A stretch of 64,000 nt of DNA. Source: Eledone cirrhosa. Lineage: Eukaryota. Made by a program: the position numbers and the translations under genes. Shown here one piece after another: positions 5,080 to 64,000 of the stretch. Within the stretch, counting starts at the first letter, position 1; each line of letters opens with the position of its first letter. Under the pieces are notes generated by a model. It worked only from the letters and a program-made list of their open reading frames with translations. It was not told the DNA's origin and ran no database searches. Location of the stretch: contig OZ024743.1 in NCBI GenBank assembly GCA_964016885.1, positions 123,690,001 to 123,754,000 of the forward strand, written 5' to 3'.

Positions 5080-6042
5080 CCGATTTGAACGCAGACGAAA
5101 CCGACATAACCAAGGCAGGACTGGTGAATATGCTGGTGATCCGCACGGGTCATCCGCCGGCAACAGAACGGGCTGCGGCGTGCGGTGGGATAATGGTACT
5201 ACCCCGCACGCCTCGAGATATAATAGTACCATGGACCGAGATAGAGACATAGATAACAACTTAGGTAGCAATAGTAATAGCTTTACTTCAGGAACTAGGA
5301 GCGACCGTGACAGAAAATGCAACTCTCGTGACAGGAGAGGCTGCCCTCTCAGGGGAAACTGCCTGACTGATAAGGTTATTTATAGGTGCACCATAACTAA
5401 CCATAATGGAGTTAAACACTATATAGGGGCCACCTCTGGCCAGTTCAAAACGAGATTTAGAACTCATCTCCATTCTTTCAGAAACAAAAAACTAAGGCAC
5501 TCCATGTCACTTGCCAATTACGTCACTACATTAAAAGACGCCAACATCGGCCTCTCCACAATCAGTCATAAACTGTAAGCACCGAATGCAAGCGTCTTAC
5601 TTCGGGTGGGAAGCGACTGTGGCATGAAAACTATAAACTGGGTCCCCCTGCCCAAACCATAACACTCCGGTGGACAGGCGGCGTAAACAAACATCTGTGA
5701 ACTAAATATACTTCCCAGACCCGGCTCGAACCGGCATTAGTAAAGCAGCACCCACAAAATAATAACGCAAAACACCATCATGTGAACGGGTAAAAAAGCC
5801 AGTGGGACAAGATTATTCAAGCACCGGCCAGAGTTACTCCCCCTGCTCTGCGGCAATGACAACACACGTACTTAAGCGAAGAATGAACTCTGATAGGAAT
5901 TTAACCTTAAAACCCCTCCTGGGTCGCGTACTGATCATTTTTTTGTTTCCTATGCCCTTGAGAAGCCCGTTCTGGGCGAAACGTACATAGGTGCATTATT
6001 ATATAAACATGTTTTAACGGTATATACTCCTTTGTATTCATT

Positions 6043-6048
<6 letters not shown>
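5080..6048 (+). mobile_element. 5'-truncated Penelope-like element: GIY-YIG endonuclease relic plus 3' UTR
   Basis: CNSRDRRGCPLRGNCLTDKVIYRCTIT...HYIGATSGQFKTRFRTHLHSF (Cys motif, VIY-YIG, R..H); HHR-like motif at 5949-5991; ends at (TA)n. Confidence 0.75.
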
Positions 6049-6073
<25 letters not shown>

Positions 6074-6663
6074 ATGTGTTGCACAATAATCAGCTTTCTC
6101 TCTCACTTATCAAGCGTTCCCTGTAACATTTTACATTAAGTTATGTTCCAAACACAAACTTAACGAGAAAGTTTCGTATACGATGACTAAATCAGTTCAA
6201 GTTCTTGATTATTTTCAAAATTATTTGAAAATTACAAGCGGTTTCTTTTATTAGTGATATGTAGGGATTAATAAACATTCTAGTTTTTAGTTGGCAAAGT
6301 ATTGCTTTACTATTTCCCAAGAAAACCAGTTCTTGACATCCTTCCAAATCACTTTATTAACTATAATCTATACTGCCTGTAAATATAACACCTCTACAAC
6401 AAATATAATCACGCTAATACTGTTATAAACTCTCTTCTCACCACACGGTAAAGTTCATTGACTGTATATTAATGGCTCCTTTTGCCAACCAAAACTAGCG
6501 TTAATTATATCTAGTACCAGCCGCTTTTATCCTAAAATGTTCCTTAAATATAGATGTTGAAGATTGTAAAGTTTATCTTACAAATTTCTTAAAGATGATA
6601 AACATAATACTACAAAGTAGTCATACTGTCAAAACATTTGCTAAGTTAAACTTACAGACGAAA

Positions 6664-16197: not shown

Positions 16198-16226
<29 letters not shown>

Positions 16227-16402
16227 TTATCATCACCGTCATAATTATCTCCACCAACGTCATCACCATCATCACCATCATCACCACCATCACCATCATC
16301 ACCGTCATCACCGTTATCACCATCATCACCGTCATCACCATCATCACCATCATCACCATCATCACCGTCATCACCGTTATCACCATCATCACCGTCATCA
16401 CC

Positions 16403-16435
<33 letters not shown>

Positions 16436-16888
16436 ACCGTCATCACCATCATCACCATCATCACCATCATCACCATCATCACCGTCATCACCATCATCAC
16501 CGTCATCACCGCCATCACCGTCATCACCATCACCATCATCACCATCACCACCACCATCATCACCATCATCACCATCATCACCATCATCACCGTCATCACC
16601 ATCATCACCGTCATCACCATCATCACCATCATCACCATCATCACCATCATCACCGTCATCACCATCATCACCATCATCACCATCATCACCGCCATCACCG
16701 TCATCACCATCATCACCATCATCACCATCATCACCATCATCACCATCATCACCATCATCACCATCATCACCATCATCACCATCATCACCATCATCACCAT
16801 CATCACCATCATCACCGCCATCACCATCATCACCATCATCACCATCATCACCATCATCACCGTCATCACCATCATCACCGTCATCACC

Positions 16889-16921
<33 letters not shown>

Positions 16922-17267
16922 ACCATCATCACCATCATCACCGTCATCACCATCATCACCGCCATCACCGTCATCACCATCATCACCATCATCACCATCA
17001 TCACCGCCATCACCGTCATCACCATCATCACCATCATCACCATCATCACCGTCATCACCATCATCACCGCCATCACCGTCATCACCACCATCACCATCAT
17101 CACCATCATCACCGCCATCACCGTCATCACCATCATCACCATCACCATCCGTCATCACCATCATCACCATCATCACCATCATCACCGTCATCACCGCCAT
17201 CACCGTCATCACCATCACCATCATCACCATCACCACCACCATCATCACCATCATCACCATCATCACC

Positions 17268-17300
<33 letters not shown>

Positions 17301-17492
17301 ACCATCATCACCATCATCACCATCATCACCATCATCACCATCATCACCATCATCACCATCATCACCGTCATCACCGCCATCACCGTCATCACCATCACCA
17401 TCATCACCATCACCACCACCATCATCACCATCATCACCGTCATCACCATCTTCACCGTCATCACCATCATCACCATCATCACCGTCATCACC

Positions 17493-17525
<33 letters not shown>

Positions 17526-19235
17526 ACCGCCATCACCGTCATCACCATCATCACCATCATCACCATCATCACCATCATCACCGTCATCACCATCATCACC
17601 GTCATCACCATCATCACCATCATCACCATCATCACCATCATCACCGTCATCACCATCATCACCATCACCATCATCACCATCATCACCATCATCACCATCA
17701 TCATCATCATTATCATCACCATCATCACCATCATCACCGTCATCACCATCATCACCATCATCATCATCATCACCATCATCACCATCATCACCATCATCAC
17801 CATCATCACCGTCATCACCATCATCACCGCCATCACCGTCATCACCATCATCACCATCATCACCATCATCACCATCATCACCATCATCACCATCATCACC
17901 GTCATCACCATCATCACCGTCATCACCATCATCACCATCATCACCATCATCACCGTCATCACCATCATCACCGCCATCACCGTCATCACCATCATCACCA
18001 TCATCACCATCATCACCATCATCACCATCATCACCATCATCACCGTCATCAACATCATCACCGTCATCACCATCATCACCATCATCACCATCATCACCGT
18101 CATCACCATCATCACCGCCATCACCGTCATCACCATCATCACCATCATCACCATCATCACCATCATCACCATCATCATCCTCATCACCATCATCACCGCC
18201 ATCACCGTCATCACCATCATCACCATCATCACCATCATCACCATCATCACCATCATCACCATCATCACCATCATCACCATCATCACCGTCATCACCATCA
18301 TCACCATCATCACCATCATCACCATCATCACCATCATCACCATCATCACCATCATCACCATCATCACCATCATCACCATCATCACCATCATCACCATCAT
18401 CACCATCATCACCGTCATCACCATCATCATTATCATCACCATCATCACCGTCATCACCATCATCACCGTCATCACCATCATCACCGTCATCACCATCATC
18501 ACCATCACCATCATCACCATCATCACCATCATCATTATCATCACCATCATCACCATCATCACCATCATCACCATCATCACCGTCATCACCATCATCACCG
18601 TCATCACCATCATCACCGTCATCACCATCATCACCATCACCATCATCACCATCATCACCATCATCATTATCATCACCATCATCACCATCATCACCATCAT
18701 CACCATCATCACCGTCATCACCATCATCACCATCATCACCATCATCACCATCATCACCATCATCACCATCATCACCATCATCACCATCATCACCATCATC
18801 ACCGTCATCACCATCATCATTATCATCACCATCATCACCGTCATCACCATCATCACCGTCATCACCATCATCACCGTCATCACCATCATCACCATCATCA
18901 CCATCATCACCATCATCATTATCATCACCATCATCACCATCATCACCATCATCACCATCATCACCGTCATCACCATCATCACCATCATCACCATCATCAC
19001 CATCATCACCATCATCACCATCATCATTATCATCACCATCATCACCATCATCACCATCATCACAGTCATCACCATCATCACCATCATCACCATCATCACC
19101 ATCATCACCATCATCACCGTCATCACCATCATCACCATCATCACCATCATCACCATCATCATTATCATCACCATCATCACCGTCATCACCATCATCACCA
19201 TCATCACCATCATCACCATCATCACCATCATCACC

Positions 19236-19268
<33 letters not shown>

Positions 19269-20015
19269 ACCATCATCACCATCATCACCATCATCACCAT
19301 CATCACCATCATCACCGTCATCACCATCACCATCATCACCATCACCATCCGTCATCACCGTCATCACCATCATTACCGTCATCATCACCACCATCACCAT
19401 CATCACCATCATCATTATCATCACCATCATCACCATCATCACCATCATCACCAACATCACCATCATCACCGTCATCACCATCATCACCATCATCACCACC
19501 ATCACCATCATCACCGCCATCACCGTCATCACCATCATCACCATCATCACCATCATCACCATCATCACCATCATCACCATCATCACCATCATCACCATCA
19601 CCATCCGTCATCACCGTCATCACCGTCATCACCATCATTACCGTCATCATCACCACCATCACCATCATCACCATCATCATTATCATCACCATCATCACCA
19701 TCATCACCATCATCACCATCATCACCATCATCACCATCATCACCATCATCACCATCATCACCATCATCACCGTCATCACCATCATCACCATCATCACCAT
19801 CATCACCGTCATCACCATCACCATCATCACCATCACCATCCGTCATCACCGTCATCACCGTCATCACCATCATCACCATCATCATTATCATCACCATCAT
19901 CACCATCATCACCATCATCACCATCATCACCATCATCACCGTCATCACCGTCATCACCATCATCACCGTCATCACCATCATCACCATCATCATCATCATC
20001 ACCACCATCATTATC
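16198..20015. repeat. 3.8-kb CAT/CAC/CGT 9-bp-unit satellite
   Basis: Unit CATCATCAC with variants CACCGTCAT and CATTATCAT. Confidence 0.98.
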
Positions 20016-20784
20016 GTCAGTCTCAGCAGAATCAAGATTATATCTTGAAACCGCACCTGATGCCACTCCTACTTATTACTGTACATCATCTTCTATATTA
20101 TCAGAAACTTAACTTTACTAAAACATATGTCCAAGCCCTGTCGTCACTAATACCCACAGAATATTAGCCACAACATCTTACACCCTTTGTAGGGGGTGTG
20201 ATTAACTTGGTAAATCTTTCACGTATTGCAGCACATTTCCATAAGATTATTTATTAAGTGGACTGAGTTATTAAAAGCAAAATAACATCTCACTCATGGT
20301 GGTGTATTAATAATAATAATGAAATTATTGTGTACGGTGCTCAGGTGCACTACAACTCATCAAAGGTGCATGTATAGTACATAGAATAATATACAAATGT
20401 CGGGAAAATGAACAGTGTATGAGTCATGATATAATAACAACAACAATAATAATAATGAAATATTGTGTACAGTGCCCAGGTGCACCACAACTCATCAAAA
20501 GGTGCATGTACAGTACATAGGGCAATGCACAAACATCAGTAAAAGGAATCTAAAACCATCCCACCCAGCCTCACCTAAAAGACACATGCTAATCCCTGTC
20601 TATTTGAAGCATGCGTAATGAGACGTTCAAATTAATCGTTAATCTTCAGCTAGGCTCAACTATAAAGAATTTACAAAAAATAAAATGACATAATCTTAAA
20701 AAAACTTGAGTGGGAAACTTTGATAACATCTGTGAGCGTATGTGAGAGCATATGTAAGTGTGTCTGAGAAACTGTGTATATATC

Positions 20785-32324: not shown

Positions 32325-32361
<37 letters not shown>

Positions 32362-32426
32362 CAATTTTGAATAGCGCCAGTTCGTAATTTGAACTCGGGA
32401 ATTTTATATTCTCCGAGTGAAAAGAT

Positions 32427-32510
32427 CCTTCTGACGAGAGTTTTCCTTTGCAACGGATGCCGTATGGACTGTCCGTTTATTTTTGAGACTCGAAACCGCT
32501 TCGGTAAAGG
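32427..32510 (+). ncRNA. Type I hammerhead ribozyme, copy 1
   Basis: cctt-CTGACGA-gagtttt..gagactc-GAAA-ccg ctt cgg-TA-aagg; predicted cut after 32506. Confidence 0.85.
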
Positions 32511-32910
32511 TAACCATAGTAAGAAAAGTTAATTTTTAAAATTTATTTTGAAACTTTTTCTTATTTGCTAAACCTTGATTATATATGTTCTGGCTCGTTA
32601 ATTTATTAACCTGCCATTGAACCACATTGGCATATTTTTGGACAATACATGTGTCCCTAAGCGCCTTGTGCGTGTAGGAACATATACTCTATTATTACTG
32701 TTCTCCTATTGGTTGAGAAAAAATTTGGTCGTTCTGACTGCTGCTAGTTATAGCGGGAGCAGACTGGCCTCCCTGCCTCTGCCTCTATCTTTACACACGG
32801 CACTTGAAAGAATTGCTTCCACTTCATTTACTCTCATCTCGGGAACAATTTTGAATAGCACCAGTTCGTAATTTGAACTCGGGAATTTTATATTCTCCGA
32901 GTGAAAAGAT

Positions 32911-32994
32911 CCTTCTGACGAGAGTTTTTCTTTGCAACGGATGCCGTATGGACTGTCCGTTTATTTTTGAGACTCGAAACCGCTTCGGTAAAGG
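32911..32994 (+). ncRNA. Type I hammerhead ribozyme, copy 2
   Basis: Same motif; predicted cut after 32990. Confidence 0.85.
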
Positions 32995-33071
32995 TAACCA
33001 TAGTAAGTAAAGTTAATTTTTTAAAATTTATTTTGAAACTTTTTCTTACTTGCTAAACCTTGATTATATAT

Positions 33072-33208
<137 letters not shown>

Positions 33209-33879
33209 GGTGTGTGGGTGATGAACGAGAGTGTAAAGACTGAAAACAAACACAACACACTCCTCTTTGACCAAGCCCACACTGACTGTTTAAGTTCCAC
33301 TTGGTAAGGGAGGCAGTGGCATAGTGAAGGAAATTCTGCTTCTCATGATGTTTGTTAAAATATGGGTGAAATTAGCAAATATGACCCGAGTAAATCGACA
33401 AACTTTCAGAATATTCCTGTAGTTTGTAAAAACTGGAAGAGATAGAAGCATTATCTATCGTGCCCTTGTTCATCTTGGATTTGTACCCACCCACCCCGCT
33501 ATTTGAAAATCTTGTTAATTATTTATTGATAGCTTGTCTATATTTTCTGTGTACTCGTGTTATGTAAATCATCACTGTTTTTATTTATTTGTATACTCTG
33601 TAATGTTTTCAGTGGCCAATAAAGAAATCCTCCACCTCATCAACATCACCATCACCACCATCATTATCATCAGTATTATTAATATGTGAAACTTCCTTTG
33701 AATTCTGCTTGTTTCCTGCATCTTAACAAGTATCAACTTGACGCCTGATCAAAATTTGGTATTTAACAATCAATTAACATACGAATTACACCATAAGGGC
33801 ATAAACAAAGCGAGAATAATGTGTATTGACATGGGAATAAAGCTGTTCGAGAGGCATGTGTGGGAGAAGCGAGGCGCAA

Positions 33880-47169: not shown

Positions 47170-48864
47170 TCTTTATCTTTATATATATAAAAGCGAGGAT
47201 GTGTGTGTGTGTCTGTTTACAACTTTGGATGCCTAAGGCTTTTACAATTACCAACAGAATGTGTCCAAATTTTCTGTGTACGTTGCACAGGTCGCTAAGA
47301 TGGTCACATCACAAAATTCGCCCCACGTTGAGCAATAAAAAATCGATATCAAAATTATCGGTAGCAAAATTGATGTAAGGGAGATAACCAACTTTATTGA
47401 CAAATATAAACATCAGATTCATTTGAAGATAATTCACTAATATTATCGTTTGTTTCTTGTTTACTCTTTGTTGCACTTTCAAAGTTAAAAAAACACTTGT
47501 TGTTTTAACTTGTTTCACGATATTAAGTGTTAATTTTCGCGGTAAAAAAAATTGTTGCACTATCAAAGTTAAAAAAACACTTGTTGTTTTAACTTGTTTC
47601 ACGATATTAAGTGTTAATTTTCGCTTTAAGGGCCTAATCTTGCAGCAGTCTCGAATTGACGAGATTTTAATGATGGTTTCATTATTTTTAGAACAATCGT
47701 TATGGGACTTTCCATTCAAACCATTGGAACCTACAACTTTTACGTTTTTAAAACTTTCATAAGTCATGTTGACACTCAGACTGGTCATGACGGATACCCA
47801 CTATATAGCCGGAGAAGACCCGAAGATGGTGGATTCACAGCAAGGGTTGCTGGATGTCCTCGGATATATAAATCTATTGATACTGTATGTGATCCACAGG
47901 ATGCGGTCAATTATCCAGTTAAATTTCTAAATTCTTTAAATCCTCCTGGTTTACCTCCTAATACATTGGTTCTGAACGAGGGAACGCCAGTTATTTTGCT
48001 GAGAAATATCACTCCTCCAAAACTATGCAAAGGTACACGCTTTGTGGTTAAAAAACTGTCTCCACTTAGTATTGACGCTACCATTCTATCCGGATGTGGA
48101 AAAGGCGAGGATGTGATATTAACAAAAATTAGCCTGACTACATCAGGCGTGAATACTCCCTTCTCCTTTCGCCGAACCCAATTTCCCCTTCGTGTTGCTT
48201 TTGCGATGTCCATAAATAAGTCGCAAGGTCAAACTCTGTCCGCCACTGGAATTCACTTGGATGAACCTTGCTTTTCGCACGGACAATTCTACGTTGCCTG
48301 CTCACGAGTTGGCAGTCGAGATAATCTCTTTGCGTTTGTTCCGAAAAGAAAAACAAAGAATATAGTCTATCCTGAAGTGCTTTAGTGTTAACAAAAAAAC
48401 TTATTTCAGCTCTGCCTTGACTTCACCTTACTCATTACAAAACATACCAATGAATATGTCATGCAAGATATTTTGGATTATAAGTACAAATTTAACCATA
48501 CCCAGCAAAGGATGCTCTCAAAGAATAGATTTTGTCTTATTCTACTCTCATTGTTTTTTGTTTGTATATAACTCTGCTTTCATTACAACTTCTTGTACTT
48601 TAGCAAAAATGCCTGTTTTTTTACAGATTTGCAACGTGTATTGTCTTTAATCATTTGTATAACTACATCCTGTTCAGTGTTTTCCTTCATTATCAAAATA
48701 GTTTTATGTGTACAAAGATTGCATTAAATTTTCGTTTGCATTAATTATTGAAGACTTCTGCTTATTTTGACAGGTTGGGGACAAATAATGTTCTTCTTTT
48801 ACTTCCTAGCTGTATATTCTTAGCATAATTTCAAACCCCGAGCTACGCCGGGTAAATCTGGTAG
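47170..48864 (+). mobile_element. Internally deleted Helitron
   Basis: 5' TC, 3' hairpin CCCG..CGGG followed by GTAG, inserted between A and T with no TSD; carries a helicase fragment. Confidence 0.85.
47702..48385 (+). pseudogene. Helitron Rep/helicase remnant (PIF1-like helicase C-terminus)
   Basis: DGYPLYSRR; FLNSLNPPGLPP; LLRNI..KLCKGTR; RRTQFPLRVAFAMSINKSQGQTL; FSHGQFYVACSRV. Confidence 0.9.
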
Positions 48865-50448: not shown

Positions 50449-51100
50449 TGTATACAGACGCACAGTAGTATGTATATATATATATATATACATGCACATA
50501 TATATATATATGTACGTATGGATTCACCAAACAATTATCACAATGCTCGGTGTGTTTGGAAACAAACATCCCGTATTAAGCCGTAGTGTCTAGCAACCAC
50601 CGTTGCTCGTTTGTTCAACACTGACAAAGGAACGCTGTACTAGTTTCAAGCTTGTTAGCTATCGTCAGCAACGTATACCTTCCTGCCAGATAGTTGAACG
50701 TCCGAAAGTATATACTTTCCTTATGCATATTAACGGCTGAGTAGCCCAATTTGCATATCGAGTGGGTTAATCGGCCGGGTGCACCGAAAACGATAAACGG
50801 AAAAAATGAAACGAAATTTCATTTCCCACTCTTAGTACGGCTGTTACTTAAATATAAGTATGTATACGTACATACATATATGTATACAGACGCACAGTTG
50901 TATGTATATATATATATACATACATGCACACATATATATATGTACGTATGGATTCACCGAACATTTATTATAATGCTCGGTGTGTTTGTAAACAAACATC
51001 CGGAATTAAGCCGTAGTGTCTAGCAATACATACTATATATACATACTACTGTGCGTCTGTATACATATATGTGTGTACGTATACGTACTTATATTTAAGT
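50445..51100 (-). mobile_element. Partial tandem (period about 430 bp) plus an inverted arm of the HHR repeat family; HHR at 50633-50673 (-)
   Basis: GGATTCACC recurs at 50520 and 50950; cgttg-CTGACGA-tagct aaca agctt-GAAA-ctag-TA-cagcg. Confidence 0.8.
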
Positions 51101-51106
51101 TCCAAT

Positions 51107-51872
51107 AAGATTGGAAGTCCGATGGACTTCCAATGGAAATGTTCGGATCATCAGAAAGCATTTTCCCCTAGATAGGACGAAAGTCCAACGAACAGCAAAA
51201 TATATTGCATTCTGCCAGCTAGTGCAGGATCGAATGAGGCCGTAAATGAACTAGCCCCTAGTATAAGAGGAAGTAAACATAGACGTGTTGTCTATCACGC
51301 TGCTAAAAATAGCAGCTAGGTAAAACAACGGATTTTTTTCTCTACACATAGGAGAATATATAAAAAGGAGATCACAGGTACTAAGTACCTCTGGAAATAT
51401 ATAGGGTGTCTATGGTACAGTTGTTGTTCTATGGTATCAATTTGACATACCAGAACTATAAAATTGAGATAAGCGGAGCAAGCAAGATTCAAACAATTTT
51501 TAGGTCAAGTTTACGGTCTCATTCGATCCTGCACTAGCTGGCAGAATGCAATATATTTTGCCGTTCGTGGAACTTTCGTCCTATGTAGCGGAAAATGCTT
51601 TCTGAAGAACCGAACATTTCCATTGGAGGTTCATCGGACTTCCAATCTTTTGTGAGGCGAAACCATCGGTAAAAGCAAATGGAGTAGGTAAATATTTAAA
51701 TTATATTTTTTAATTTATTTTAAAAAAGTGTTTGAATCTTACTTGCTCCGGTTATCTCAATTTTATAGTTCTGGTATGTCAGATTGATACAATAGAACAA
51801 CAACTGTACCATAGACACCCTATATATTTCCAGGGGTACTTAGTACCTGTGGCAATATTGATCTCCTTTATA
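51107..51872. mobile_element. Permuted fold-back HHR element; HHR at 51596-51677 (+)
   Basis: Two interleaved inverted repeats; tgcttt-CTGAAGA..GAAA-ccatcgg-TA-aaagca. Confidence 0.75.
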
Positions 51873-53684: not shown

Positions 53685-55125
53685 TAAACGGAATAGAAAA
53701 TGCTGACAAATTGTTCACAGTGAAAAATAGTTTAATTAGGTGAGAATTAGTAATTGTTGGAGAACAATTACTTCGTTTTCAATAACAAACCCTACAGGCA
53801 GAAATCTGGGACCGCTATGGGAACGAAAACAGCCCCCACTTATGCCAACCTAGTCATGGGATACCTGGAAATCACCCTCTACACTAAAGTCCTAAACAAA
53901 TTTGGAAACACTCTCCACTTACACATAGAAAGGAACTGGAAGCGATATCTAGATGACTGCTTCATCCTTTGGCACGAAAACATCGAGAAACTTAAAGAAT
54001 TTCACACCCTTATAAATGGGCTCAACACGAATATTAACTTCACGATGGAATACAGCCATCAGCAACTCCCCTTCCTCGATATCCTCATTAAGATCCATAA
54101 CAAAAAAATAGAAACAGACATATACTACAAGCCCACAGACTCCAAGCAATATCTTCCTTTCAACCCTAGATCTTCTTGCCACCCTAGACACGTTAAAATT
54201 AATATTCCCTACAACTTAGCCAAGAGAATCTGTACTATAGTCTCCAATAAAAACACGTGCTACTTACGGCTACAAGAACTAAAGGACACACTCATAGGCA
54301 GGGACTACCCTGCATCACTAATTGACAATGGAATCCAACGTTCCCTAAAACTCAGTACCCAGGACCTTAGACACCCTAAAGTAAATCAACCGAAACTAAA
54401 AGCTCTTCCATACATCTCTACACACAACCCCCTCAACAATGAGGCCTTTGACACCATCCTCCAGAACATCCCTGTGTTGAAAAAGGACCATAGAATGAAC
54501 CAAATTCTACGAACACACGATATCATAAAAAGCAAAAGACAATCTAAGTCAATGAAAAACATCCTAACACATGCCAAAGTACTGCCAACCACAACAACGA
54601 AACCCACAGTAAAAAAATGCGATAGACCCAACTGTGGCATTTGCATCAACCTAATAGAGGGTTCGGAATTCTATTTCAAAGAAGGACAACGTTTTATAGT
54701 AAAACACAATTTCACATGTGCATTGGAAAATCTAATATATGTATTAACTTGCTCAGGTTGTCGAGAACAGTACATAGGCCAGACCAAAAACAGCCTCCGC
54801 CAACGCATGACTGTCCATAGATCCCAAATTAAAATACGGGAATACAGGAAAATACCACTGAGTGAACACATTGATACCTGTGCCGCCCAAAATCATCCCA
54901 ACTTCAGAATCTTTCCCCTCTACAAATTTAAAGATAATGGCACCCACACCCAACGCATCAGCAAGGAATATTACTTTATTAACAAATACGGACCCCGTCT
55001 AAAAACTTCTCCCTAAGACGAACCCACAACATACACACGTCAACATACATACCTACATCAGCACACATCTCTACCCACATATAAACACAATGACATACGT
55101 AAACACACATGTTCTATGGTGCAAC

Positions 55126-61372: not shown

Positions 61373-64000
61373 TGTTTCTTTTATTTGCCACCAGGGCATC
61401 AAAAGTGGGACAAGTACAAAGGGGGGAGTTTACAAAACAAGGCGTCCTCAATAAGGAGGAGGCAATAACAAAATATAAAAATAAAATAAAATATAACAAT
61501 AAAATATATAACAAAATCCTCAATAGAGAGGAGGCGCCTTGGGGGGTCGCACACACCCCCGAAAAAAGTGTGCAACCCTTTTCTCAGGAGCACGGAGAAG
61601 GGGTGCTCCCTTGGTCTTTCATCTTCCTCACCTATAGTCTGATGTAGAGTGAAGGCCCATTCACACGGGCCATTCTCGCCACTTTCACCCATCTTTCATA
61701 AAAACGGCTGGGGTGCCTCTCTCTCCATCCTGATCCTTCTTCCGAAATAATATCGGAAGAAACGGACCAGTTGTTGACCAGAGAGAAAGGTGTCTGAGCT
61801 CAGTCCTTTCAGACGCGTCCACCATACAACCTCTTTCGCCATGGCTATTACGCACAGAAATACCGCCTCTCCTTCGGTTTTGAAGAGGGGAGGCGGCTTG
61901 ATCGTTACAATAGACTCGGTGGTCAACCGGATCGGTCCCACCCTTGACAGCAGTTGTTCGACATAGCCCCACAGATCAGCAATGCCCGAGCAGTGTACCA
62001 ATGCGTGTGCAACGGTTTCCTCGTCGCACACGCATCTGGGACAGATCTTTTTCGAGGGGTCCCTACCCGGGCACCCGTGTCTGTAGAGCCTTTCTCGAAC
62101 GGGCAGAGCCCTTCTGTAGCACTGCCAGGCCAGGGAACTCTGGAAGTTATCCATGGGTCCCGGGCTGAATGTCCTACCGAACAGGTTGGCCAGTTCGTCT
62201 TCCTCCATGCCTATGGCTTCTCTGAGGGCGTCGTCGCACCTGCTAACCACCAGCCCTCTATAGAATGACGAGGTGGATTCTCCACTGACAGTCGGGTCCG
62301 CCTGCCAGAGGGCCGTGAGCGCCTGGGCACACTCGGTGTGCCAGGCGCCCAGTTTTCTCGGTCTTTGCTTGACCCAGGATTGCAGCTTGGTGAGTGAGAC
62401 GAGTCTGGGAAAGGCTCGCCTCACAAACGGGGCCCACACCGGTTGACCGGAGAGGAATACCTGGAGGTGCCGTAGCCTTAATGCGTGTTTACGTATCATT
62501 AGCCACGGCATTGCCAGCCCTCCTTTCGAAGGGTGTTGACAGCAGATGGATCTCCTCACCATAGGAGCCCGCTTCTTCCAAAGGAATTGGAAGAGTGCGC
62601 GCTCCATTTTGGCGAGCGTTTCCCTTGGGTAAGGCACAACGGTCAGGCGGTACTAGATGACGGACGCTATATAAGTGTTTGCCACCTCCGCCCGACCTTT
62701 CAGAGACAGTTTGCACTCGGCCCACTTCTGGGTCAGTGCAAACACCCTGTTCGTTACCTCACCCCAGTTCTTCTCCACCTGGAGGTCTGGTCCGAACCAG
62801 ACCCCGAGCAACTTCACCAGGCCCTCCGTCCAGCGCCCGACGACGCCATCGGAGGGCATCGATGTTCCCCTCCACGTGCCGAGTTGCAGATCGATCAACT
62901 TGTCCCGGTTCAGCTTAGCCCCTGTAAACCTTTCGTACTCCTCAAGTAAGGTGCCGATCGCCCCGATTTCCGAGGCCGTAGACACCATTACTGTTACGTC
63001 GTCGGCGTAGGCCGACACCGCTTTCCGCAATCCCGACTCCAACTTCCGCAGCAGTGGCTCTAGAGTCATTACATATAGAAGGGAGGAGAGAGGGCACCCC
63101 TGTCGGATGGACCGCGCGATTTCGAACGGCTCCGAGAAGTAGCCGTTCACCTTGACCCTAGAGCAGATGCGGCTGCTGTGCATGGCATTGATCCAGCCCC
63201 TGAAAACGGGTCCGAAGCCTTCCGCCGCTAGCACCGCATCCAGGTAACCATGGTCGACCCTATCGAATGTCTTAGATTGATCCAAGTTGATCAGGGCCCC
63301 ACCAAAGCCGGGTTCGTTCCCAACCCTCTCTATGATGTATCGCATGAGGTGGAGGTTGTCGTGGATGGACCTGGACGGGATAGCACATGTCTGCGCATCT
63401 CCCACCAGGTTGCCCACGACAAGCGCCAACCTCTTTGCTAGCACCTTGGCCAAAATCTGTAACTCTGTATTTAGCAGAGTTATAGGCCTGAAATTATTTA
63501 TATCGTCCCCCTTGTTCTCGTCCTTCCTCACTAGCGTGTCTACGCCCTTGGTCACAGCACAGGGAATTCTCCCGTTCTGTTGCCAGTTGCAGTAGACCGC
63601 CTCGAGGAGATCGGGGAACAAGTCCGGCATAGCTAGATATAGTTCGTATGGAAGACCATCGAGACCCGGGGATTTGCGTTTTCCGCATTGGCTCAGAACG
63701 TCCTCTATCTCAGCGGCTGAAATCGGCTCCTCGCAGGACTTCGCCTCCCTGTCCGAGAGACGCGGCAGGCATTCGAGGTATGGACCGAAGTCCACATCCC
63801 CAACCGGCTCCCCGCCCCTTCCGAACAATCCGGCAAAGTCCTTTTGAAAAGCCTCGCACATCTGCTTAGGTTCAAGGATCACCCGTCCATCCTAGTCTCG
63901 CAAAGACCGGATAGTGGATCTGCTCCCTCTTTTGGCTTCTGTCACGCGGGCCCAGCTAACAGCTTTGGTCCCCTCGTTTCCCAGAGCACGTATTTTGCTT
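61373..64000 (-). mobile_element. Tx1/L1-clade LINE, 3' part; runs off the window
   Basis: RT and zf-RVT coding region, 3' UTR with AATAAA abutting (TCTA)n. Confidence 0.9.
61696..63882 (-). pseudogene. LINE ORF2 (RT plus C-terminal Cys finger) broken by an in-frame stop at 62653-62655
   Basis: KSPGLDG, FRPITLLN, LDQSKTFDRV, RQGCPLS, YADD, CPRC..ETVAHALVHC; the two track ORFs share one frame. Confidence 0.9.

Follow-up and report, generated by a model that had tools for sequence, protein, structure and literature searches.

A 484-nt hammerhead repeat in Eledone cirrhosa, a candidate retrozyme family with the insertion anatomy of Penelope-like elements

Results and Discussion

The element is a truncated tandem of a 484-nt hammerhead unit

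The window, by which we mean the whole 64000-nt stretch of DNA analysed here, contains at 32359-33071 a compact element that lies between simple repeats (Table 1). Two direct repeats (32359-32582 and 32843-33073) are situated 484 nt apart and are 97.8% identical, differing by four substitutions and one indel, and each of them holds a hammerhead ribozyme with the pattern CCTT-CTGACGA-(54-nt helix II arm)-GAAA-CCG-CTT-CGG-TA-AAGG, the cores starting at 32431 and 32915. Both ribozymes have type I topology, with a helix III of 3 bp (G-C pairs) plus an A15.1-U16.1 pair, a helix I of 4 bp only, and a helix II in which 7 bp lead through an internal loop to a distal stem of 6-7 bp. The numbering of hammerhead positions and the consensus of the core are established knowledge. 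The same conventions are in use in PMC4209133. The initial annotation had described near-identical direct repeats with a complete hammerhead each, a real 3-bp helix III (CCG-CTT-CGG) and an extended helix II, and this was borne out. It had further classed the element as a retrozyme candidate and predicted GUA cuts after 32506 and 32990, spaced by 484 nt, that would release a non-coding monomer of this length; both proposals are backed by the sequence and by comparison with the family described below.

Table 1. Positions of the element and its parts in the window
Feature	Position	Strand	Basis or remark
(AT)16 tract, 5' side of insertion target	32327..32358	.	TA runs flank most family copies
5'-truncated upstream unit with hammerhead 1 (unit positions 337-484)	32359..32506	+	Unit alignment of the locus
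Hairpin upstream of the ribozyme	32393..32418; copy 2 at 32877-32902	+	Compensatory changes between subfamilies
Type I hammerhead 1	32427..32510	+	Helix I CCTT/AAGG, core 32431
Sub-parts of hammerhead 1	Helix II arm 32438-32491, GAAA, helix III 32495-32505	+	Predicted cut after 32506
484-nt non-coding cut-to-cut unit (predicted RNA monomer or circle)	32507..32990	+	38% GC
Predicted post-cut hairpin, re-pairs helix I 3' strand (AAGGU with ACCUU)	32507..32576; again 32991-33061	+	
End site A, main 3' end of family copies	32578..32586	+	Unit positions about 72-80
End site B, second 3' end	32686..32697	+	Unit positions about 180-191
Predicted pseudoknot, AAAGA (32905-32909) with TCTTT (32929-32933)	32905..32933	+	Cross-family covariation
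Type I hammerhead 2	32911..32994	+	Core 32915; cleavage predicted after 32990
Last partial unit, positions 1-80, stops at site A	32991..33071	+	Unit alignment
TATATAT then (TG)n, 3' side of target	33065..33220	.	Sequence

When aligned to the cut-to-cut unit, the window copy reads positions 337-484, then 1-484 and then 1-80 (1.46 units), so the direct repeats of ~225 bp reported earlier are present as the overshoot of a truncated tandem and not as LTR-like ends. Reading them as terminal repeats was rejected, as truncation points in the family are numerous and scattered, and the 5' end at unit position 337 is just one of them. The microsatellites noted on both flanks are likewise there, not as incidental neighbours, but as the target of insertion.

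The 484-nt unit is non-coding, with the longest stop-free frame in the 709 bases of the element being 89 aa, and it folds with a z of -2.74; the ribozyme region folded alone gives a z of +0.55. Rfam returned no match at gathering score in all 64000 bases, and at E up to 10 it returned nine chance matches, hammerhead not among them. A sigma-70 scan stayed at chance level, and sigma-70 is irrelevant to an animal genome. The window copy has rare bases at ~9 positions, among them a C at unit position 477 (loop III) that is found in both of its units and in one of 162 other segments. It had been called the cleanest testable unit in the window. Both of its hammerhead cores are intact, and within its large family it is an ordinary member.

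Dispersed copies share two 3' ends and TA targets

A copy-number search, which the initial annotation had proposed, was made with a 25-nt ribozyme pattern across the 3.0-Gb assembly and gave 1074 exact matches, as compared to 0 for the reversed control; the hammerhead motif is not a chance occurrence. A DNA similarity search pointed to 2818 candidate places in the genome, 40 of which were scored. The first 100 listed motif matches correspond to 79 distinct loci, and by scaling (79 per 100) the family is estimated at ~850 motif-bearing loci, which is a lower bound. The copies are dispersed over many contigs and share period, 3' ends and TA targets. In three sequencing runs from one sample the family was present as DNA-like contigs, with a read depth that was uneven along the unit.

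Before counting, 11 of the loci L001-L060 were excluded as overlapping duplicates, together with BLAST pieces shorter than 28-60 nt, arms shorter than 55 nt and the homopolymer/TA positions 25-41 and 73-82; for the comparison of variants in tandem and inverted copies, four loci with separate neighbouring insertions were excluded as well. Among the 113 arms of at least 55 nt that the 79 loci contain, 71 end at unit positions 70-90 (site A) and 33 at positions 176-194 (site B); together these account for 104 of 113 arms, which stop ~80 or ~189 nt past the cut, and the other nine end elsewhere. A TA repeat follows directly in 100 of the 113. The 5' ends are scattered and the repeat length varies between copies. 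Tandem copies reach up to three units, in which the end of the 484-nt unit runs straight into its beginning with no ORF, and only 15 of the 79 sampled loci have two cut sites within one arm. Where arms are adjacent head to head, one A end is paired with one B end in 24 of 27 loci, and the combinations A+A and B+B were found in 0. The span from A to B corresponds to a tail of ~110 nt.

These copies combine features of non-LTR retrozymes, i.e. tandem units that each contain a type I hammerhead, two or more complete motifs and a short, non-coding, low-GC unit that is multicopy and dispersed, with features of non-autonomous Penelope-like elements (PLEs), i.e. partial tandems, 5' truncation, inverted arms, two alternative internal 3' ends and a (TA)n microsatellite target. 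The arrangement of plant-type LTR retrozymes, a type III hammerhead in fixed-length LTRs, was not seen. Judged by these sequence-level features, this would be a novel family, at once of non-LTR retrozymes and of non-autonomous PLEs.

The ribozyme fold covaries within and between families

Pairing was assessed in an alignment of 56 of the 105 available copies, where 93.7% of cells were paired, as compared to 20-57% in slid controls. Compensatory changes were observed at two pairs of helix II (G-C 35, A-U 13 and U-A 6 of 56; C-G 34 and U-A 18 of 56) and at two pairs of the upstream hairpin (C-G 30 and U-A 24; G-C 27 and A-U 15 of 56), these counts representing few subfamily events that are each counted many times. 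The invariance of helix III is partly built in, since many loci were retrieved with that motif. A satellite or tandem duplication of local origin, whose hammerhead motif is dead or there by chance, would agree with the silence of Rfam and with the finding that core and helices are intact in only 36 of the 56 sampled units. This explanation, to which we give hardly any credence, is largely refuted by the compensatory changes and by the occurrence of the same period, 3' ends and TA targets in copies dispersed over many contigs.

Two sister families, F2 and F3, were compared with the window family. F2 occurs in the window at 51100-51870 (profile match with E down to 8e-14) as a head-to-head insertion with its own hammerhead on the + strand, core near 51593, and has 2005 candidate places in the genome. 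F3 has 479 motif matches, is 78% identical to the 484-nt unit and includes many helix II variants. Both retain the two end sites. Helix I is altered on both strands, from CCTT/AAGG in the window family to GCTTT/AAAGC in F2 and GCCTT/AAGGC in F3. Since core and helices covary across the three families, the hammerhead fold is, on this comparative evidence, conserved under selection. A long tandem array of F3, made of 487-nt units that are 94-96% identical, is located at C1:176444018-176452290 (L253-L255) and is possibly an old source locus.

In all three families a run of purines situated 6-12 nt ahead of the core has a sequence complementary to the helix II internal loop (AAAGA/UCUUU in the window family, GGAAA/UUUCC and GAGAAG/CUUCUC in the sister families), and the combination of purine run and loop from the same family scores best in every row (108, 19 and 19 ribozymes). 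A pseudoknot between the strand 5' of helix I and the helix II internal loop is predicted, with the caveat that purine-pyrimidine runs pair easily; copy 1 in the window loses one of the predicted pairs (C at 32445). The 3' strand of helix I can instead, again in all three families, close a long hairpin ending just before site A, for which one compensatory change was seen in F2 and none was found within the window family. Equilibrium folding gives helix I a probability of ~0 both in the 709-nt transcript and in the circle, and in the circle helices II and III are near 0.9 and the post-cut hairpin is preferred over helix I. These models suggest that cutting would take place co-transcriptionally, with the ribozyme being shut off thereafter.

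The template may be a ribozyme-defined monomer

Copying across the ribozyme cut site was analysed on C1, where 79 of 88 passages continue through the cut (exact CGGTA in 69, a single substitution in 10); no indels were present in the last five bases before the cut among these 79. A linear monomer copied from site A would give only 80 nt, so the template of the crossing passages was either ligated or uncut, or was bridged by a precise jump. Stops 0-4 nt from the cut were found in 9 of 88 (8 loci), as compared to 1.5 expected (p 2e-5), an indication that in some templates the 5' end was located at the ribozyme cut; other 5-nt bins approach this stop rate on smaller numbers (5 of 52 at 155-159 nt upstream).

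At 61 subfamily sites, tandem units mismatch in 5.7% of cases, as compared to 47.7% between loci, and they share 46 rare variants in 14604 sites, as compared to 11 in 63217 for random pairs (~18-fold). No difference between upstream and downstream units was recurrent in more than 3 of 51 loci. Shared and unshared rare variants per locus stood at 36:306 in tandems and at 4:163 between the inverted arms of an insertion (Fisher p 0.0008), and the same contrast counted by locus is borderline (17 of 48 vs. 3 of 24, p 0.052). The homogeneity of tandem units would favour a bottleneck of a single unit, as a circle would give, and the sequence pattern agrees with a ribozyme-defined monomer, probably circular, as the template. 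A nearest-neighbour test of units, in which the sister unit was nearest in 22 of 56, was set aside as uninformative because change after insertion dominates.

The same non-autonomous PLE family could also have been copied from read-through transcripts of tandem source loci, linear and uncut, with the hammerhead cutting a minority of transcripts, or cutting late with protein help, and with units homogenised by gene conversion or template jumps. Several observations on PLEs in vitro agree with this, as RNA left unprocessed serves as the dominant substrate and is initiated internally, cleavage is unnecessary and protein-assisted, and ribozyme mutants insert normally (PMC11167929); the same paper found no RNA-seq reads ending at the hammerhead cut. 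Possible source arrays exist in the genome (F3, C1:176.44-176.45 Mb, units 94-96% identical) and helix I is disfavoured at equilibrium. At L156:1100-1150 (-), a 19-nt duplication begins exactly at the cut and a deletion is joined there by a short shared word, joints of the kind expected from template jumps made at the 5' end of an RNA. We nevertheless consider copying from uncut RNA less likely, given that units within an insertion share their subfamily and private variants, that position-specific differences are non-recurrent, and that core and helices covary across three families, so the fold is selected. Circular templates have been proposed for PLE insertions of more than unit length (PMC4209133).

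Penelope-like enzymes are the likely movers

Mobilisation in trans by a Penelope-like protein (RT + GIY-YIG) is likely from the anatomy of the insertions, on which the argument is built because no autonomous element with this unit was found among the loci searched. A PLE protein was shown in vitro to nick the two strands of AT-rich DNA and to start reverse transcription at two internal RNA sites, which define the genomic tail (PMC11167929); tail, inversions and a bias to (TA)n microsatellites are described in PMC8557442. By analogy, the A and B ends match this published two-site initiation.

PLE ORFs are intact and abundant in the genome (100 of 100 scored matches at >=97% identity, many 784-aa frames), RT and GIY-YIG domains were confirmed in the 784-aa family, and the 3' regions of further PLE families have the same two TA-joined ends. 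At 53754-55016 (+) the window contains what remains, after 5' truncation, of an RT + GIY-YIG element that is young and abundant and has a Cys-rich linker; we take this element to be Neptune-like. Full-length copies of this element (L091-L100) have the 784-aa frame and, before it, an apparent long frame (L091 about 5300-6660), which is unusual for a single-ORF class.

An autonomous PLE sharing the 484-nt unit was found neither in 10 full-length loci of the 784-aa family nor in 30 of the 150 scored GIY-YIG loci. A family profile search of the window and 70 PLE loci, a sample of no more than a few of the families to which 10596 GIY-YIG candidates belong, gave no partner carrying the unit. With the protein P0002 as query, tblastn gave no partner over the family loci and only matches of E 1.7 and above over the element, and the PLE fragments that were inspected beside family copies were in no case located upstream on the same strand. 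The hammerhead-like cores in the 3' regions of autonomous PLEs (L176-L203) have changes at U3 and A8 (TTGATAA or TTGAAAA) and continue as GAAA-CCGG-TA, the 784-aa family having GCAA instead of GAAA. The PLE of L190/L194 was considered as a partner and rejected, its motif likeness being unconvincing and its alignment weak (shuffle p 0.02 and 0.34).

The copies might instead be nothing more than terminal repeats (pLTRs), in truncated form, that stem from an autonomous PLE which escaped the search, in place of a self-standing retrozyme. In favour of this, autonomous PLEs of this genome have hammerhead-like cores with two ends joined to TA behind them; one PLE family (L190, L194) also carries GAAACCGGTAAAGG after its core, and the uneven read depth along the unit in the DNA-like contigs points the same way. 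The pLTR explanation is very improbable in our view, since tandems of up to three units pass from one 484-nt unit into the next with no ORF, an upstream ORF was not seen in the loci examined, the alignment to L190/L194 is weak as noted, and sister family F3 accounts for the uneven depth at least in part.

A model for insertion

At the level of sequence, the comparison establishes a family with two internal 3' ends, 5' truncation, head-to-head arms, TA targets and a conserved fold. We think it probable that the window copy is a 1.46-unit copy of a (TA)n-inserting hammerhead repeat, mobilised in trans by a PLE protein from a 484-nt RNA, likely a circle. A transcript spanning two hammerheads would cut itself co-transcriptionally, the pseudoknot supporting the short helix I. 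The monomer would then be joined by RtcB-type ligation, along the lines of a proposal in PMC7229834, and thereafter the post-cut hairpin would sequester helix I and protect the circle. A PLE protein would nick (TA)n and start reverse transcription inside the RNA, at A on one strand and at B on the other, and by passing the ligated junction it could produce 0.2 to 3 units; products with two hammerheads could seed the next round. More tentatively, the genomic copies may record rolling-circle reverse transcription, in which a pseudoknot-assisted hammerhead gives the 484-nt circle, the hairpin is an off-switch that also presents the start, and a dimeric Penelope-type enzyme primes at two sites, using both strands of the target. 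Should this be true, the family would provide a minimal natural substrate for deciding the role of the hammerhead in PLE and retrozyme transposition.

Comparison with known retrozymes and PLEs

Non-LTR retrozymes were defined in PMC7229834, with circles shown in coral, mussel and axolotl and PLEs named as likely movers, and Li, Clavereau & Pollet 2026 (10.64898/2026.07.22.740005) describe animal retrozymes as non-autonomous PLE derivatives and report in vitro cleavage in 1 of 9 predicted retrozyme dimers. As animal retrozymes are already published, the element itself is no surprise. Like them, it has non-coding tandem units with a type I hammerhead each and a GC below 45%, has at least two complete tandem hammerheads and co-exists with PLEs. 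The 484-nt unit exceeds the 170-400 nt of validated circles (PMC7229834, 10.64898/2026.07.22.740005), but falls within the 51-972 bp range of the 2026 survey (10.64898/2026.07.22.740005). The ribozyme of the window family differs from those of published animal retrozymes in that helix I has just 4 bp, helix II is long, helix III is stable and a pseudoknot is predicted, and the two fixed internal 3' ends and the (TA)n targeting are not described for retrozymes in the accessible text of PMC7229834 and 10.64898/2026.07.22.740005. Circles are validated for retrozymes in published systems, whereas the window family is known here from sequence.

With EN+ PLEs the family shares partial tandems, inverted 5'-truncated arms and microsatellite targets (PMC11167929, PMC8557442, PMC4209133), as well as two internal end sites downstream of the hammerhead, a short helix I and a long helix II. 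It differs by being without an ORF, by a tail of ~110 nt where that of PLEs is 30-40, and by a helix III that is a stable, non-palindromic stem; moreover, both of its end sites resemble the TA target, whereas the start sites of PAc are not target-homologous. Perreault et al. 2011 (PMC3088659) found pseudoknots in roughly 40% of hammerheads, and these resemble the one predicted here by a Watson-Crick contact of the helix I side with helix II. In our case the predicted contact is between the strand 5' of helix I and the helix II internal loop, and it would occur in an animal repeat. Plant LTR retrozymes also have two hammerheads in direct repeats around a non-coding middle, but these are type III ribozymes within true LTRs, accompanied by PBS/PPT and 4-bp TSDs (PMC4918200), whereas the window family has type I ribozymes and a repeat length that varies with 5' truncation.

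No description of this family was found among the papers listed for octopus or cephalopod retrozymes, although supplements and Repbase, outside that scope, may catalogue it; the terms ribozyme, retrozyme and hammerhead are absent from PMC13282606. What the family contributes is a direct and unusually clear insertion anatomy, i.e. the two start sites, the TA targets, the stops at the ribozyme cut and the homogeneous tandem units, which ties a retrozyme to Penelope-type enzymes. It bears on the question of whether hammerhead-made circles or uncut RNA are the template for transposition, for which the 484-nt unit with its three covarying families makes a compact test system.

Other features of the window and related loci

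Further minimal hammerheads are present in the window at 1974(-)/2203(+), 23419(-)/23580(+), 30101(-) and 30359(-), mostly with palindromic helix III loops and with two of the sets forming inverted pairs, typical of truncated PLE ends. In another TA-flanked repeat (L093:7253-7274, L096:926-947) 20 of 22 bases match the post-cut stretch (E 0.001), which may be chance. The window also contains a 3.8-kb (CAT/CAC)n array at 16198-20019, in which several frames are open for >1000 codons, a Pif1 helicase fragment, possibly of a Helitron, at 47660-48385 (+), and a LINE-type RT with a zf-RVT fragment at 61696-63891 (-).
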